A DNA stretch of 58,126 nucleotides, filler included, from Sphacelaria rigidula (Eukaryota): assembly GCA_964200075.2 (NCBI GenBank). It is 4 parts of 4 records of this genome, joined end to end, with 100 filler letters (N's around TTAATTAATTAA, not from the genome) between each part and the next. Parts side by side here need not be neighbours in the genome. Positions count along the whole stretch, not along the records: positions 1 to 14,461 come from CAXNAA020002232.1; 3 more parts are not named here. One strand, written 5' to 3'. Shown here piece after piece: positions 4,411 to 12,440 of the stretch. Position 1 is the first letter of the stretch. Every line of letters starts with the position of its first letter. Position numbers and translations under genes: made by a program. The notes below the pieces were generated by a model. It was not told the origin of the DNA and searched no databases. It saw only the letters and a list, made by a program, of their open reading frames with translations.

Positions 4411-4666
4411 CACATAAAATATTTATGTACTAAATCGAAAATTCGCGTCTGCACCGCATCTCCATCACCCAATAGTTGCCTATGTTTCTCAAATTTGATC
4501 AAGAGTGTATGGCAACATGGATTTTATCCGTCTTCTTTCACATAAAGTATTTATGTACTAAATCGAAAATTCGCGTCTGCACCGCATCTCCATCACCCTA
4601 TAGTTGCCTATGTTTCTCAACTCTGATCAAGAGTGTATGGCAACATGGATTTTATCCGTCTCCTTT
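4411..4666. repeat. 128-bp tandem duplication, with a partial third copy at ~4925-4960
   Basis: cacataaa..tatttatgtactaaatcgaaaattcgcgtctgcaccgcatctccatcacc...gcaacatggattttatccgtct at 4411 and 4539. Confidence 0.9.
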
Positions 4667-5303
4667 CATATATAAGTAAAATTCCAAGCATGTGTGATAT
4701 AGCCCTAAAAATTATGGGGGGCCGCTCGTTCCGTTTTACGTTTCTTTTACTACTAATATCCTCATTTTCTTCCGGTCTGTATTTTTCTTCCTGTTTTGTA
4801 CGATTTCGTTCGGATCTCTATGGCGCTTTTCTCTCCCACTTCACATTCTCTTCATTTCTTCATTTTTATTTCATGATACCTAACCGTATTTCGTATTCCA
4901 TATCCAATTTCTTATTTATAGTATTTCGAAATAATATCGCGTCTGCACCGCGTCTCCATCAGCGAATATTTTCTCCATGTTTCCCCACTCCATCATCACC
5001 CTGTATACAGTTCTCACTTTGTACGATACGTTAATTTTCTTCTTCCTTTTTACCTTTTCCCCATCTTCCCCTCTCTGGTGCATCAATTCATAAATTCTGT
5101 AATCTTTTCCAACTTTCATCATTACTCTGTATTTATTTGCGCTCGAACACGTTATACCACTGGGGAAAACACCAATTACTACAAGAAAGAACAACGAGCG
5201 CATAGCTTTTATGACGCCTAACTTTACCTTAACTTGTGGGTTTTGAGCTTGTAATTTAATTGTAATTAAAATAAGTAATCAATTCATTAAAGATTGTTTG
5301 AGA

Positions 5304-5803
5304 ATGGATGATTGGATTTTATTTTCCGGGCAAGGGAAATACAATAGGATGGATGATTGGATTGGATTTTTTGGATTTATATTGCTAACCACTACACGCC
5401 ATACAAACGTCATTCCGATTAACGAAATTGTGAGGTCCTGAGTGAAAAAAAAGTATAACATATTATATATTTATTCAACTATTTAAATAATTTATTACTT
5501 GAACATTGTTTGAGGATGGATGGTTGGATTTCATTTTTTGGTCAAGGCAAAGACAATAGATACGAATAAATTATGAGTATATAAAATGAATAAATTATTA
5601 TATATTTTAGGATGCATGGTTGGATTTTACTTTTTGGACAAGGGGAAGACAATTTTCTTTTTCATGAGTTAAGGGCAATAATCTCTTTCCAGGTATCAGT
5701 ACAATATTAGATCAAATGAAGAAATGATATATTTTAGGATGGACGGTTGGATTTTACTTTTTGGACAAGAGGAAGATTTATTTTTTGGACAAGGGGAATA
5801 CAC
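5304..5803. repeat. Cluster of ~45-bp ggatgNNNNNttggatttt..ttttggacaagggg motifs upstream of the HUH gene
   Basis: Copies at ~5304, 5347 (partial), 5513, 5608, 5736 and 5776 (partial). Confidence 0.85.
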
Positions 5804-6045
5804 TGTTTTCGCGACTTTAATTTTTTATTTAGTACTCATTCCTCCTACATAACCTCAGATATTATCTCATGTTCTCATTGTTTATTCTTATTCTTTTCTA
5901 AAACTTGTTCCTTTTCCCCCCGTCAACGCCATTCTCTCCTTCCTCTCTAGCGCGTCGGGCGTCGCCCACGACATTCACGACGGCGTCTCCACCTCGTAAC
6001 CCCGCACATGCCGGAGGAGTCACCCCGTCGCCGCACCCTGCGGCC

Positions 6046-8172
6046 ATGGTGGGTTCTACGGGTACGACTGACGACCAGCCTGCGCCTTCACTTGCGCCCG
6101 ATGGGCCTACGCGCACGGGGCGGTCGCGTGGTCGTCGTCCCCGCGTCTCTACTGCCGAGGATCCCGTCCGGACATCTACCGCCACCGCACCATCCTCTCC
6201 ACTCGCCGGTCAACCGCGACGCCGCGGACGCCCCCGCATCGCCGCCGTCTCCGACGGCGTCACCTCCAATCGCTCCGCCCCCTCCATTCGTACCGCCTCA
6301 GCTATCCCCTCCGGCTCCGACGGCGTCACCTCCAGTCGCACCACCCCCTCCATTCGTACCACCTCAGCTATCCCCTCCGGTTCCGACAGCGCTATGTTCG
6401 CTTCATCCACCGCTGCCAGCGCCGCCAATTCCGGCCGCCCTGCCGGCGCCTCCCCTCGCCCCGCTGCCTCCGACGCCAGGGGTGCCGATGCTTCCTCGGC
6501 CGAACCCCGCACGGCCGGCGACGTCAGCGGTACCTGCCCTCGCTCCGCTACCGACCCTTCCATCCCCTGGCCGCGGCCTCGCGGTCGTCCGCGGCGTCAG
6601 CCATCTCCGGTCCGCCTCTGCCCCCGCACCGGTGACGTCATCGACAACATCATCAATTCCGGAACAGGGAATTCTGTGGACTTCTCTCTGACGATAGCAT
6701 CCCGCGACGCGGGGAACATACCCGCCACCGTTTTCGATGACGCGGCGCACTTCTTCGAGAAGAAGGCGACGCGCGGGTTAGTTAGTCTCGAGCGGGGGGG
6801 GGGGCAAAAGGCGAACCTACACGTCCAGGGGAGTCTTACATTGGGAATCGTGAAGGCCTACGACGATGATAAGAAGATGAACACGGACGTACGTAACAAC
6901 TTGAAGACGTTCGAGAGTTGGGGACCTGATCTACGACTCAAGATTGACGTCAAGCCTCTCGGTGCCAAGCAGTCTTTTGAAGGCAAGTTCTTTTTCTCTT
7001 CGTAGCCTTCCAATTTTATTTCCTTCTTTAAATATCACTAACGCATTATTTCCCACTCTCGTTTCTTACTTGCAGATATTTCTTACAATTCTTCCTCCCT
7101 TTCTTCCGACCCTCACCTCTCCCTCCTGCATTGCGCATCGTACTGTACGCCTTCACTCCCGACCCTTTCCTTCCTCCTATCTTCTTTCCCGTCCATTACC
7201 TCACATCGCTCTTCCCTTTCCGTCGCTCCTTTCTCCATGTGCGCCTTCTATATCCCTCCAGCTAAGGTCGGCTACTGCTCCAAGGATGTCGGGAGAGGCC
7301 ATTTCCGGACCGCGACTATGAACGTGTCACGCACGGAGATTAACGTCGCTCTCGCCGAGTACCGGAAGCTGCAGCATCAGGTCGTGAAGGACGTGCGCCT
7401 CGAACTCGGCAAGAAAAATTTCTGGTGTTGCGTCCGACGCTTTCGGGAGGAATTCTTGCGTCCACTCACACCTTCTCCTGTGGCCATCCTCACGTGGATG
7501 GTCCAAGATGGGGAGTATCTCCCCAGCTCCTCCTGGATTTGTCCCACGAGCGCCCATCCTATGGAAGCGTTGAGGGCCGAAGCTTACTTCGTCGCTCTCG
7601 TGTGCCCCTCCCTTTTCCGACGAGAACATGCGTACACCCTCTTTTTCTCCGGCGGTTCCGGTGGGCGAGTCAACGAGAGTTTCGCTCTTTGGGACCATCA
7701 AGACGCGGAATGGATCGAGCTCACGTGCGATCAGGCTAAGGTCCACGCCGGACGCCGCGCGGAGGTCGCCGATGCCGTCGACGCCGTACGCGATTTAAGG
7801 AACCGCCGCCGAGCTTCCGCCGCCGTCGCCGACCTCCGCATGCCAGGCGTGCCTAACTTCCCCGTTGGCCCGGACAGCGATTCGGACGACGGTGTTCAGC
7901 CGGCCTGCCGCCCTTCCGCTCCAACTCCTACTTTCCGTAACGCTCCTGGAGCACCGGACGACGGCACCGAAGACCTCCCGCTTTTGGTTCATTCTTCTTG
8001 CTCCGAGCCTCGCTGTGTTACAGGTGGCTGTATCGGCATGGTACCGTGTGCCGGTTCTTGCGACGGCTTACTCCACCCAACTTGCGGCCTGTCCGCTTCT
8101 ACCGACGACTCCCGGCGGACGTGCTCTTTGTGTGCTGGTGTCACTCTTGGCAAGCGTCGTAGCCGTACGTAG
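6046..8172 (+). CDS. Replitron-type HUH (Y1) endonuclease/transposase, about 615 aa, 2 exons (6046-6982, 7262-8172), with AT-hooks and a C-terminal PHD-like finger
   Basis: Joining GAA G|gcaagt (GC donor at 6983) to ccctccag|CT AAG (acceptor AG 7260-7261) fuses ORFs 5905-7005 and 7237-8172 in frame. The product has motif I DFSLTI (6679), motif II ERGGGQKANLHVQG (HUQ, His at 6820) and motif III QSFEAKVGYCSKD (Tyr at 7273). These are followed by G.GHF....NVS..EI and M..DGEYLP...W...RA...P...FF blocks that match my recollection of the Replitron consensus. There is no helicase Walker A. The start at gccATGg 6046 is inferred. No internal stops. Confidence 0.88.
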
Positions 8173-8479
8173 CTGCCTCTGCATTCTTCGATTGATTGTG
8201 ATTGCTTCTCCTTTTCTTTTGTGTATTTCGTTTTTTCCCCGGGTGTCTGTCCTTCCTACGGCATTGCAGTAGCCCTTTTCGCGTCGTACTTTCCTTCTTT
8301 CCCCGTACAGTGCAATACGAGTTGCGCCGTTATGGTTACCATTTGTGTGTCAGTATCCTTTCCACTGTCTTTTTAATGATCTTTCCTCTCAGCATTTTTC
8401 CCGCGTGTTCCAAAAGGGTTAAGTAGTCCAATTGACGCCATTAGGGTGGAGAGATCACGGGTTCGATTTCACGCCAGAT

Positions 8480-8560
8480 GAGCAATGCTACGGTAGGAGT
8501 GCACCTTTTGCGCGATATCTTGTCTAGTCCAGGGGTTCCTAACGCTTCCAGATGCACAAC
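8480..8560. mobile_element. Truncated end of the GAGCAATGCTACGGTAGG MITE family
   Basis: Aligns with 13820-13900; no second TIR is present. Confidence 0.7.
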
Positions 8561-8573
8561 AATGGATTTTTGG

Positions 8574-8884
8574 AGGATGCATGGTTCGATTTGGGGGGGG
8601 GGGCAAGGGAAACACAGTCGCTCAACTTCGATACTATATATTTTATATTATTTTTTGTTTATTTTTGTTTTCTTTTGACTTTAATTTTGATTTTGATTTT
8701 GATTTTAATTTTAATTTTAATTCAACAAACTGGTCTATTAATTAATTGATAGATTGACCAAAGATGGATTTTTTTTGGGACAAGGGGACGACATTTTACA
8801 TAACATATTAATGATTACAAAGGGATAATTAATTCACAGATTGATTAAGATGGATTATATTTTTTGGACAAGGGGAAGACAATA
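8574..8884. repeat. Second cluster of the same motif downstream of the HUH gene, same orientation
   Basis: Copies at ~8574, 8763 and 8849 (gatggattatattttttggacaaggggaagacaata). Confidence 0.8.
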
Positions 8885-10117
8885 AATCCTTCGTTTTACG
8901 GCATACATTATTCGCCATGTGTGTTAACCTTTCGTGCCAGATGCACCTCGTCTGGTTTCGCCGTTACGGACGTCCTCGGACATCGTGCAATATTTGTCGT
9001 TGTGTATCTCAAGTCCTGCGTAGGGTAGGTACCCTACACTACGGTGTTTCTTTTGATGTTAACGGTTTGTTTTATCGACCTCGTGCCATTCGTCTCTCGT
9101 CGTCTTCCGATGGTGTGCCCTGTGTATTTCCTGTCGGTCTCGCGGGAGGTTCATACGACCACCTCTTCCAACTAATCTGTTGCGTTTATATGCTTTCTTC
9201 CTTTCTTGGCGGCGGTCATTCGTTTTAAGTTCATCGCTTGTTCGGGTTGGCATTTTTTTTTCTTGTATGTTTATACTTCACATGTACGATTTCCCATGCC
9301 TACATGTTCGTGTTACGATTTTTCCTGTAGTTTGCTTCTCTTCTGTACCGTACTCACCTTATTTTGGTGTTTTCGATGCTTAATTAAAATCAACTGGGTC
9401 TGTCAGTTGCGTGAGTCCTTTTCTTGCTTTTGGGGGGAAATATCTCCGTGCCATCGTCATATTGTTCCTTTATTGTTGTTTTTCCTCTCAGTCCCCCTCT
9501 CGGTTCCGTCCACTACCTACTCCTCGGATTACCGACATACATACGGAAAACGACTACCTACTCCTCCGATTACAGATATGGATCCGGCAATCGCCACTCC
9601 GCGTCGTGTCTTCATTTCTTCCTCCATGACATCTTATATAAAAAAAAAATCATGCCGGGCTCTTCCGTCTTCTATTTCTCTCGCATTTTCCCCAGAATAT
9701 CGAGTCAACTTATTATGTCGTTCGTTCCCTTCTTTACCAATTTGTTCACGTGGCACCTTATTGTTAGGTTCGTCGCTCCTTCCTCTTTTTCCCTTCTCAC
9801 TATTATTGTGAAAGATATATGCACCGCATTTCGGTCCTTCCTTTGTACTGCACTATAATTATTCCACAATTTCATGCATAAGTGAATGTACGTACTATGA
9901 AGGCGGTGTGCCTCATCAACCTCGTCTCCTCCATTTCATGCGCACGGAACCAGCCCCACAGAATTTTGTCCTCAGCCGCGGTGCAACCTGTGGTTTCCAT
10001 ACCCCGTTTCACCTCTTTCTCACGACTTGGCGTTCCTAATTTTACATGTGGTTTCCGACGGATTCCGTCATACCTGCCCAATCCCCGCGATCTCTGTTAA
10101 TTTTTTGTCATCACTCC

Positions 10118-10370: not shown

Positions 10371-12440
10371 GGGGGAGATTGCTGCAACTGCTGTACGTTC
10401 AGCTAATCGCCCAACGCATAGTGGCATCGATGGTGAAATTCCCCATCATCTTATGTTCCGAAAACATGCCAAATTATCATTTTGCGTAAAGTCGGCTCGC
10501 CTGCTTTTCTACACGTAGAATGTCATATTAAAAAGTTGGAGAAAAGACATGGAAAGGTGTCCTAGTAGGCTATGACTCTGATAGTTCGTCTTATAATATA
10601 AATAATGGAGAAACTGGTCGAGCTGTGAGTTCGCGAAATGATACCTTCATAAAACAAGCAGCCGCCAAAGCCATCTCCAGTGATACACGGGCTACATGGA
10701 GAGAAAACAGGGATTAAGATAACATTTTCGAACTTCTAAATGATGAACAGAAGGGAAATTTTCATTTTAACAACGATGTATACGACGGAATTTCTCAATT
10801 GGAGCATTCATCTACAGAGCGGACTACACCAACACAACTTCGTTCTACAGGTAGCCCAGATCAAGCTACATCTCAACCATCAAACACACGCCAAGCCGTT
10901 TTTAGGCTGGCCCAGCTCGTACCTGCATCCTTTCTAGTTTCAACCACGTACAAACAGGCGTTATCTTCACCGTATGCGACAAAGTGGAAAGTTGCCGTGC
11001 TATGTGAACTACAAAGCATTTCGGACCATAAGTTGGCAGACACTATTCCATCAAGTTTGATACCTCTAAACAACAACATAATTGGTACGCGTTAGGTGTA
11101 CAAAGTCAAAGCCGGTGGAAGATACAAGGCCCGCTTAGTTTTCCAAGTTTGGGTACATGAGCTTGGATTCGGCTGTAGGAGTACCTTCGCGCCTATATGT
11201 AGACCGGAAAGTCAAAATATTTATTAGCAATAGCTAAAGCTAAAAGTTGACCTATAGTTGCCCTAGATATACAGGCCTCATTTTTAAACGGCAAATTACA
11301 AGAACCCGTATTCTGTAAACAGCCACCTGGATTCGAAACATCAGACCCAGATACTGGTCAACGACATGTGATGCGTCTTCGCCGTGCCCTGTACGGACTT
11401 CGACAAAGTCCCAATGTGTGAAATTTTGCAATCGACACTGAATTATAAAACGAGGGTTTCAAGTCAACCACAAGTGATCCGTGTGTATGTACGAGAGGAC
11501 AGTAAGGAGATTATGCCATGGTCACTTTGTTCGTTGATGATATCCTAGTTACAGGACCATCCCTCGAAAGTTTACAGAATGTACAAGATACTCTCAAAAC
11601 GAAACTTTCAATATCAGAGTTTGGACCTGTTTCACTTATTTTAGGTACGGAGGTCATCAGAGATTCTGGAAGAGGATTTCTAAAACTTTCTCAGTAAAAA
11701 TAGGTACTAAAGTCACTACAAACGTTCAAAATGGAATCCTGCAATACAGTACATACACCAGGTGAAGCAAATCAACACATAAAGGGACCAGAAGAAATCT
11801 TCTGGATCAAGAGCAGACGAAACAATACCAAGCAATGGTGGTAGTCTTATTTTTCTAGCACAATGCACCAGATTCGACATAGCTTTTAGTGTTACTCAGG
11901 CAGCTCGTCACATGAGTAGACCAAGTGTTCATCATTAAGCTGTAGTAAAGCGTGTATTTCAATCCTTAAAAGGAATACCGGATCTATCACTTACCACTTT
12001 TCGAAGAAGAACTTGAATCTACAAGGATATTGTGATTCTTCATACCGTATCTCCGGCTGACGGGGTAGAATAAGGTCAACTACGGGAACTATGTTCTTTT
12101 TAGCTAACGGATTAGTTCACTTTTCTTCAAGCCTGCAGAAAATTGCAGCTTCTTTAACTACTGAGGTAAAACTCGTATGCTTAGCCAGATGTGACACATT
12201 TGGGATGTATCTGTCAAGATTCCTACGTAAACTCGGTTGGTTATAGATGAAAACACCCACTATTTGCTCAGACTCTCTAGGAGCATTGAAATTGTCATCA
12301 AATTCTTCGTATGGCACAAGTCGCAAACACCTAGCTATAATATTTATAATCTCAGATATATTAGAAGAGGAGATGAAAAAATAATCAATCATGTGAAGTC
12401 AGAAGGTTGACTTGCTGACATACTCACGAAATATTGCGAG
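10371..12440 (+). pseudogene. Decayed Ty1/Copia pol (integrase C-terminus, RT, RNase H)
   Basis: Recognisable motifs in Copia order: GEIAATAV..ANR, GYDSDSSSY, TYKQAL, YKVKAGGRYKARLV, LDIQASFLNG, ALYGLRQSP, SDPCV, LFVDDILV, TRFDIAF, GYCDS, LADILTKY. There are many stops and frameshifts, and no LTRs were seen. Confidence 0.93.

Follow-up and report, generated by a model that had tools for sequence, protein, structure and literature searches.

A predicted two-zinc finger at the C terminus of a brown-algal Replitron transposase

The stretch of Sphacelaria rigidula DNA analysed here (the window, 58,126 nucleotides including filler, from assembly GCA_964200075.2) contains a Replitron, a transposon with an HUH endonuclease, whose gene ends in a series of regularly spaced cysteines (7999-8169, + strand). 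An earlier note, made from the DNA alone, had taken this end for a PHD-like C4HC3 finger fused to the endonuclease, possibly a chromatin reader that steers integration. Is the finger indeed part of the transposase, is it a PHD finger, and what could it bind? The stretch is very probably a C-terminal accessory module of an expressed Rep protein, consisting of a hydrophobic lead-in, a 45-residue C4HC3 finger modelled as a cross-brace with two predicted zinc ions, and a 12-residue basic tail. It lies behind an acidic linker, is conserved in a Replitron clade whose named members are all brown algae, and appears to be an addition of this lineage.

The finger and its gene

The last 57 residues of the 615-residue protein (7999-8169, +) read CSEPRCVTGGCIGMVPCAGSCDGLLHPTCGLSASTDDSRRTCSLCAGVTLGKRRSRT. 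They contain the ligand series C-x4-C-x10-C-x3-C-x4-H-x2-C-x12-C-x2-C (C559, C564, C575, C579, H584, C587, C600 and C603 in the numbering of the whole protein), which is preceded by the Pro/Asp-rich linker PVGPDSDSDDGVQPACRPSAPTPTFRNAPGAPDDGTED and followed by the tail AGVTLGKRRSRT. Spacing, linker and basic tail are found in the translation exactly as the earlier note had read them. Its series of eight ligands also stands; what it had overlooked is one additional Cys (GGC) within the x10 interval, which brings the 57 residues to eight Cys and one His and is not conserved among homologues. A regular expression of the PHD type matched none of 20,000 shuffled versions of the 615-residue protein and one of 20,000 shuffled versions of its last 100 residues.

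This stretch is part of an open frame extending from 7042 to the stop codon TAG at 8170-8172; the first Cys of the finger is encoded by TGC at 7999-8001, and the final sense codon ends at 8169. A gene model derived from the DNA starts at 6046, has its splice donor, a GC (GCAAGT), at 6983 and its acceptor AG at 7260-7261, both in phase 1, and gives a product of 615 residues. This product is 100% identical to an annotated S. rigidula protein of the same length ("unnamed protein product", hereafter P0105), which reads ...QSFE-A-KVGYC across the splice join. According to Pfam, the long frames 5902-7005 and 7042-8172 contain the two halves of one Replitron_HUH domain. P0105 matches this family with 83.4 bits (cut-off 28.5, E = 2.2e-23) over profile positions 1-128 of 128, and Replitron_HUH and the finger are thus present on a single chain. 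Replitron_C scores 22.1-23 bits on the window's copy, under the cut-off of 27, and matches 10 of the 19 aligned rows described below at E <= 1 (best 1.7e-5). No helicase family appeared in the Pfam scans of the gene and of P0105 at E <= 10 or E <= 0.01.

Replitron Reps are described as having the motifs SUTU (I), HUQ (II) and GYxxK (III) with one Tyr (PMC10288648). DFSLTIA, LHVQG and GYCSK in the translation fit these motifs, with one catalytic Tyr. The gene of the window is a Replitron Rep transposase of the HUH type with one catalytic Tyr.

Contigs of four (X1, X3, X6 and X9) of the nine public runs matching the stretch were compared with the window. In contigs of X1, X3 and X6, from two studies, position 6980 is joined to 7260; 279 letters are skipped and the cut can be shifted by 2, which is exactly the GC-AG intron. 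An X1 contig joins 6490-6980, the HUQ motif included, to 7260-8504, with zero differences over 7260-8504, and an X3 contig holds 5747-6980 plus 7260-8168. Because the spliced contigs hold both in one record, the HUH domain and the finger belong to one product. The proposed fusion of finger and Replitron endonuclease is therefore borne out twice, by the single annotated protein and by single spliced contigs, and, provided that X1, X3 and X6 are RNA, as their spliced joint suggests, the transcript is not cut short of 7999 by its end or by splicing: it continues through the finger and the stop to 8504. X9, a metagenome run of the DNA type, has no splice joint and an unspliced contig over 7087-7315. 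A variant in X3 differs at 8011 and 8135 in the finger region, where by our reading of the codons neither position belongs to a ligand. Decayed copies also occur in X9, with deletions of 5 bases at 7987 and of 2 bases at 8127.

Three AT-hook-like GRP motifs, RGRRPR, RGRPRI and RGRPRR, were read in the disordered N-terminal region of the Rep (6118-6147, 6217-6243 and 6574-6600, +). Within the same region a Ser/Thr/Pro-rich unit of 22 residues recurs, encoded by a 66-bp tandem repeat at 6238-6391 (+; 2.3 copies, 89% matches).

Conservation and fold of the finger

The 302 residues of exon 2 were searched with HMMER against 1.84 billion representatives (E <= 0.001), and word-indexed searches added further copies. 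HMMER returned 102 matches, in 11 of which the best aligned stretch extends into the finger. The named sources of homologues are S. rigidula, Ectocarpus siliculosus, Ectocarpus sp. 4 and sp. 12, and Nemacystus decipiens, all of them brown algae; a second Sphacelaria copy (P0107) is 89% identical. Alignment A2 has 19 rows, the window and 18 homologues that are 28-70% identical to the window's 79 residues. Little or no variation is seen in its eight ligand columns: 18 rows have Cys as ligand 4, 18 have His as ligand 5, and 14 of the 19 retain all eight ligands at 29-70% identity to the window's copy, which answers the question, raised in the earlier note, whether homologues keep the finger. The non-ligand residues G32, M36 and G52 are also invariant or nearly invariant. 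In the majority of homologues, ligands 3-4 form a C-x2-C pair, and ligands 6 and 7 are separated by a longer and very acidic loop. In the close relative P0106 (76% identical over exon 2) the finger module is, judging by the sequence, duplicated, with an acidic stretch between two tandem fingers.

Sixteen more distant matches of the search that were checked (397-706 residues) have neither the Cys/His pattern nor a zinc-finger family at E <= 0.01; 15 of them carry Replitron_HUH and/or Replitron_C at E <= 0.01, and P0088 is without any family. Several of these finger-less proteins have C-terminal tails of 190-270 residues behind Replitron_C. The finger, which none of these distant Replitrons has, is thus taken to have been gained in this lineage and not to be a general Replitron feature. 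When the finger region (P0105 residues 545-615) was searched by itself among proteins of 338-1077 residues, 13 candidates yielded only the query.

Three Ectocarpus proteins of about 300 residues (P0045, P0114 and P0115, from sp. 4, sp. 12 and E. siliculosus), one of them named "expressed unknown protein", have a different N terminus and no HUH domain. What they retain are the tail helix of the Replitron, the acidic linker and the finger, which is intact; they may stem from a non-autonomous element, or their genes may have been domesticated. Because they keep helix, linker and finger, the module can act apart from catalysis. One AT-hook-like motif (VGRPPGRAK) is found in P0045.

This distribution bears on the view that the finger is a cysteine-rich relic without specific function, or a mere scaffold for a nuclear localization signal (NLS) in the basic tail. 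Ligands are lost in 5 of the 19 rows, non-ligand positions are weakly conserved, and the KRR/KKK tail would resemble a monopartite NLS. We nevertheless consider such a relic or scaffold very unlikely: eight ligands and three further positions are kept while the adjoining linker varies in length and sequence, the finger has been duplicated in one lineage and retained in the HUH-less derivatives, and an NLS needs no zinc finger.

PHD fingers follow the C4HC3 consensus C-x2-C ... C-x2-4-C-x4-5-H-x2-C ... C-x2-C, and a Trp two residues before ligand 7 sets them apart from RING domains. In 14 of the 19 rows the ligand order and ligands 3-8 fit this consensus, and the first pair is C-x4-C, not the C-x2-C of the PHD type. 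The Trp is present in 2 of the 19 rows and replaced by R, V, I, K, Q or T elsewhere. At the residue two before the His, which we take to correspond to the Trp of the methyl-lysine cage in BPTF and ING2, the 19 rows have L, L, L, D, E, A, D, D, H, D, D, N, N, S, D, D, F, Y and V; it is aromatic in two rows, both degenerate copies, and a conserved aromatic residue is absent from the A2 consensus. The Pfam family PHD (PF00628) gave no match for the window's copy at E <= 10, the models PHD_2, PHD_4, zf_VAL1_N and C1 matched one or two A2 rows each, and no RING family matched any of the 19 rows at E <= 1. The scan against PHD and RING profiles that the earlier note had proposed therefore came out negative, no such Pfam model reaching its cut-off. 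Membership of the PHD family fails because the Pfam threshold is unmet, the first pair is C-x4-C, and the Trp and an aromatic residue at the cage position are each restricted to 2 of the 19 rows. From the sequences, "PHD-like" is a fair description and membership of the family is not demonstrable.

Comparisons of profile and model point to a fold class. Among PDB sequences, the A2 profile had 16 matches at E <= 10, none below 0.01; 13 of the 16 are PHD fingers by name, including those of MTF2 (2yt5), PHF23 (6wxk), KAP1/TIF1-beta (1fp0), KMT2D (6o7g), TAF3 (2k16) and MLL1 (PHD3), and the best match is the DC1 domain 1v5n (E = 0.048). AlphaFold2 models of the 79-residue tail reached a predicted local distance difference test score (pLDDT) of 42.7 from the single sequence, which is unusable, and of 73.1 with the A2 alignment. 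In the A2-based model two short strands surround ligands 3-6 and a helix follows ligand 7. Foldseek against the PDB gave no match at E <= 0.001 among 111 with E <= 10. Of the 48,161 chains compared by VIA-align, 38 reached Z >= 2 and not one Z >= 5; in a second set of 110 chains, 19 had Z >= 2 and again none Z >= 5. FYVE, RIM, PHD and RING rows lie within one Z unit of the best, the PHD rows at Z 2-3.4. In the Protein Atlas, bacterial hypothetical proteins came first (0.88-0.90), followed by PHD clusters (0.83-0.88), with 129-142 of 256 features shared; this is a lead only.

Altogether, the model suggests that the finger belongs to the cross-brace two-zinc class (FYVE/PHD/RING), and it suggests the class, not the family. 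A fold unrelated to PHD is not what the comparisons gave, as the model resembles only PHD, FYVE and RING cross-brace fingers, each weakly. From the label of a PHD-like C4HC3 finger, the ligand order and the cross-brace resemblance can thus be kept, whereas the PHD Pfam score, the spacing of the first pair and the signature Trp did not hold.

A canonical PHD reader of methylated H3K4, which would steer integration to active chromatin after the model of the RAG2 PHD finger, would be in line with the C4HC3 order, with the PHD-type core C-x2/3-C-x4-H-x2-C and with the 13 weak PHD matches in the PDB, several of them H3K4me3 readers (TAF3, PHF23). The same residues that deny the finger its family membership make this reader most unlikely: the position two before the His is aromatic in degenerate copies alone, the signature Trp is nearly always replaced, the consensus has no conserved aromatic residue, and the Pfam PHD cut-off is unreached. 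RING domains also occur among the weak structural matches (2csz, 2ecj, 2ct0 and 6l99), as a RING-type finger with ubiquitin- or SUMO-ligase activity would have it. RING and RING-CH fingers differ from PHD in the spacing of their ligands, and here ligand 4 is Cys, ligand 5 is His and four residues lie between them, which is the PHD order and neither C3HC4 nor C3H2C3, nor is it the spacing of RING-CH. Together with the lack of RING Pfam matches in the 19 rows, this leaves a ligase extremely unlikely.

Possible roles of the finger and the ends of the element

The finger core is net acidic in 17 of the 19 rows, including all 14 intact ones, and the tail (10-17 residues in intact rows) has a net charge of +3 to +6 in every row. 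We tentatively prefer to see the finger as a cage-less tether that binds chromatin or a basic peptide, a role that we regard as possible rather than probable. The finger would act as a tether and not as a catalyst. With its acidic surface it would hold on to a basic peptide of chromatin; as the finger is without a methyl-lysine cage, an unmodified histone tail is the most plausible target. Contact with DNA, or import of the Rep into the nucleus, would fall to the basic tail together with the AT-hook-like motifs of the N-terminal region. Together these parts would keep the helicase-less Rep on chromatin where single-stranded DNA becomes available, and such tethering would bias the destination of the element's copies. 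Acidic core, basic tail and three AT-hook-like GRP motifs on the same protein argue for a tether, as do the HUH-less Ectocarpus proteins that retain the module. A related transposase finger, the cysteine-rich domain (CRD) of PiggyMac, contacts the N terminus of H3 regardless of methylation (PMC8086355), which we count in its favour.

One could go further and propose that an HUH transposon lineage has gained its own chromatin reader. The acidic cage-less finger and the AT-hooks would then recognise unmodified, for example newly deposited, histone tails and deliver the helicase-less Rep to replicating or AT-rich chromatin with exposed single-stranded DNA, and the HUH-less finger-bearing Ectocarpus proteins would be domesticated regulators or competitors. 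Targeting guided by chromatin would then be a first among HUH transposons. In this extended form we consider the proposal unlikely.

Several results weigh against a conserved, PHD-like, chromatin-binding module. The best Pfam match of the finger is Znf_SCAND3 (PF23663), with E = 6.9e-4 and 20 bits (cut-off 27) for the window's copy; 10 of the 19 rows match it at E <= 1 and profile positions 7-44 of 50 are covered. Pfam PHD matches 6 of the 19 aligned rows, with a best E of 0.084 and the cut-off unreached. Below significance lie the best Foldseek match, the PHD finger 1wev (E = 0.48, the weak rows being mostly PHD fingers), and the best VIA-align match, the FYVE-like finger of melanophilin (2zet; Z 3.9-4.3, root-mean-square deviation 3.3-3.5 over 60 residues). 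X1, X3 and X6 are taken as RNA from their spliced joint and are not recorded as RNA. One or two ligands are lost in five rows (P0004, P0029, P0041, P0047 and P0060), which we read as decaying transposon copies and which show, even so, that the finger is dispensable for persistence of the sequence. Mean pairwise identity among the 14 intact rows is 0.39 at non-ligand finger positions and 0.37-0.38 in the alignable linker; the non-ligand finger is barely better conserved than the linker and so gives no evident sign of a fixed binding surface. Finally, the best-studied C-terminal cross-brace finger of a transposase, the CRD of piggyBac, binds transposon-end DNA and not histones (PMC5861402), and the element in the window has repeated motifs at both ends.

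The finger could also be a protein-docking site, for a host replication-fork or repair factor, for another transposase subunit or for the protein's own basic regions in oligomerisation or auto-inhibition. Replitron Reps, which are without a helicase, are assumed to rely on replication or on the helicase of the host and to form multimers; the top structural matches are protein-binding FYVE-like fingers of Rab effectors (2zet), and an acidic finger adjoining basic tails suggests intramolecular contacts. However, the FYVE-like and PHD structural matches are indistinguishable, with Z values within 1, and a role in oligomerisation has already been proposed for domain 2 of Replitrons. We judge docking to be unlikely.

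The third possibility concerns the ends of the element. The features of the gene and of the candidate element are collected in Table 1.

Table 1. Coordinates of the Rep gene, its finger module and the candidate element
Feature	Position	Strand	Content or basis
Exon 1	6046..6982	+	N-terminal disordered region, AT-hook-like motifs, Rep motif I, HUQ motif; identical to P0105
Rep motif I, DFSLTIA	6679-6699	+	Exon 1
HUQ motif, LHVQG	6817-6831	+	Exon 1
Intron, 279 nt, GC...AG (GCAAGT ... CCAG)	6983..7261	+	Sequence and contig joints
Exon 2, including stop	7262..8172	+	Catalytic Tyr motif through basic tail
Catalytic Tyr motif, GYCSK	7270-7284	+	Exon 2
Replitron_C-like domain	7438-7647	+	Exon 2
Conserved helix, DQAK...	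7729-7797	+	Exon 2, upstream of the acidic Pro/Asp linker
Hydrophobic lead-in (D)LPLLVHSS, conserved	7972..7998	+	Consensus EDLPLIVxPxC in alignments A1 and A2
Predicted zinc finger core, 45 residues	7999..8133	+	Ligand columns invariant or nearly so (19 rows); model pLDDT 73.1; weak cross-brace matches only
Basic C-terminal tail AGVTLGKRRSRT, net +4	8134..8169	+	Net charge +3 to +6 in 19/19 rows
Candidate whole Replitron, 3379 bp, provisional ends	5506..8884	+	Contig edges, repeats inside, size
Left sub-terminal direct repeats, ~47-bp units GGATGSAYGGTTGGATTT ... TTTTGGACAAGGGGAAGACAAT	5514..5800	+	Two sub-motifs
Two degenerate units of the ~47-bp repeat	5302, 5347	+	Outside the provisional left end
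Right sub-terminal copies of the ~47-bp motif (8575, 8774, 8862)	8575..8884	+	Motif search, blastn

In all four runs compared, contigs lose their likeness to the window before 5506 and behind 8884 (loose ends at 5505/5506 and 8884/8885). For the two sub-motifs of the ~47-bp units, 0.12 and 0.23 matches would be expected in the 58 kb and 6 were found for each; every one is on the + strand and beside the Replitron gene. By blastn, 8851-8883 is 94% identical to 5621-5653. Joints from 5524-5557 to 8851-8860, which skip about 3,300 letters, were considered as empty sites and rejected; their sides are 20-27 letters long and lie inside the repeated motif, and we read them as cross-matches within the repeat array.

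Within the 58 kb, the direct units are confined to the two ends of the element, and the finger could be a DNA-binding domain that recognises these sub-terminal repeats of its own element, double- or single-stranded, and positions the HUH domain there. Terminal or near-terminal direct repeats are a hallmark of Replitrons, with a proposed binding role; the basic tail is conserved, and Arg residues flank ligands 5 and 7. The CRD of piggyBac offers a precedent, lying at the extreme C terminus, initially called PHD/RING after its Cys/His pattern, adopting a cross-brace fold, binding TGCGT in both ends and overlapping an NLS (PMC5861402). On the other side, the acidity of the core sits badly with DNA binding, core and tail together are near neutral or negative in several rows (-3 in P0014 and P0056), and between ligands 6 and 7 lies a loop that is acidic and variable. 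The HUH domain and the AT-hook-like motifs could already provide DNA binding, and the flanking motifs are present in very high copy number in the runs compared and may be another repeat family. Binding of the ends is in our view rather unlikely, and the tether remains the reading that we tentatively prefer.

The repeat flank 5642-5762 has a depth of 67,979 in X9, where the gene has about 100-200; the ~47-bp units may also be part of non-autonomous relatives that are abundant, or of a different repeat family. A second high-copy segment lies in the 3' untranslated region (8425-8545, +), with a depth of about 5,600-6,000 in X1, X3 and X6 and of 179,136 in X9, compared with 10-20 and 100-200, respectively, for the gene. 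It contains GGTTCGATTTCACG, which recalls the T-arm of a transfer RNA (tRNA). ARAGORN and Rfam scans of 5200-9100 and of the window gave no tRNA or Rfam match, 8425-8545 included. This segment may be a short interspersed nuclear element or a miniature inverted-repeat transposable element that was inserted in, or is carried by, the Replitron.

Upstream of the element is a 128-bp tandem repeat (4411-4678, +; 2.1 copies, 95% matches). Downstream, at 10532-11697 (+), lies a degraded fragment of a Ty1/copia-type retrotransposon in short broken frames (SH3_retrovirus, E = 5.6e-7; RVT_2, E = 1.7e-8).

Novelty and relation to known systems

Replitrons are known from Replitron-1 of Chlamydomonas reinhardtii and are represented in Pfam by Replitron_HUH (PF21859) and Replitron_C (PF21860) (Craig 2023, PMC10288648). 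Autonomous elements measure 2-4 kb, and brown algae are already listed among the hosts (Ectocarpus Replitron-1_eEC32, Dataset S1; PMC10288648). The same paper describes the flanks of the 230-residue core as unalignable, the C-terminal region as disordered and Rep as the "only recognized domain" (PMC10288648); the architecture described here is accordingly not standard for Replitrons, as the earlier note had presumed. In its main text the words "zinc" and "finger" occur once each, in a figure legend without a zinc box for Replitron-1, and "PHD" does not occur; "zinc", "PHD", "finger" and "cysteine" are all absent from the seven supplementary files available as text. In the full-text literature outside subscription journals, we found no work that joins HUH endonucleases or brown-algal transposases with PHD fingers. 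We therefore rate the conserved accessory zinc finger as new for Replitrons, the element class and its brown-algal hosts being known already.

The finger is a plausible, and the first, experimental handle on the targeting or the end recognition of Replitrons. If it binds chromatin, the copying of an HUH element would be linked to chromatin state; if it binds the end repeats, it would be the first DNA-recognition module of a Replitron. For annotation, a caution follows: transposase domains called "PHD-like" should not be taken for histone readers by default.

With Replitrons the element in the window shares the Rep motifs, the single Tyr, the lack of a helicase, a helical second domain (Replitron_C-like, here below cut-off), a long disordered N terminus, introns, a size of about 3.4 kb and direct repeats near both ends. 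Unlike published Replitrons, the brown-algal clade ends in a conserved predicted two-zinc finger and a basic tail.

With PHD fingers it has in common C4HC3, the core M-V-x-C-x2-C-x4-H-x2-C-G, a length of about 45-55 residues and, in the model, two short strands and a helix after ligand 7. It differs in its first pair C-x4-C, in the missing signature Trp and cage aromatics, and in scores under the Pfam cut-off. Znf_SCAND3, the zinc finger of SCAN domain-containing protein 3-like proteins, is its best likeness in Pfam, yet below the cut-off of 27 bits; SCAND3/ZBED9 is itself derived from a transposon.

The CRD of piggyBac is likewise a small two-zinc (here predicted) cross-brace finger at the extreme C terminus of a transposase, with adjoining basic or NLS residues, and it is essential for transposition (Morellet et al. 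2018, PMC5861402). However, piggyBac is a cut-and-paste enzyme of the DDD type whose C5HC2 finger binds a specific DNA motif of the ends. The finger of the Replitron has the C4HC3 order and a net acidic charge, and no similarity in sequence was detected between the two fingers. The CRD of PiggyMac, also a binuclear cross-brace finger borne by a transposase, does not bind DNA and makes a weak contact with the N terminus of H3 (Guerineau et al. 2021, PMC8086355), the behaviour proposed here for the Replitron finger. PiggyMac differs in being a domesticated ciliate DDD enzyme, and its CRD has a circularly permuted treble-clef fold and another ligand pattern.

The PHD finger of RAG2 reads H3K4me3 and the integrases of chromoviruses carry a chromodomain; in both, a reader fused or bound to a recombinase biases the choice of target. 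The concept is the same as that proposed for the Replitron tether, although these systems are built on DDE enzymes and have proven methyl-lysine cages, which are absent from the Replitron finger. As a conserved and expressed accessory domain, the finger would mean that HUH transposases recruit cross-brace fingers just as the DDE transposases piggyBac and RAG do.

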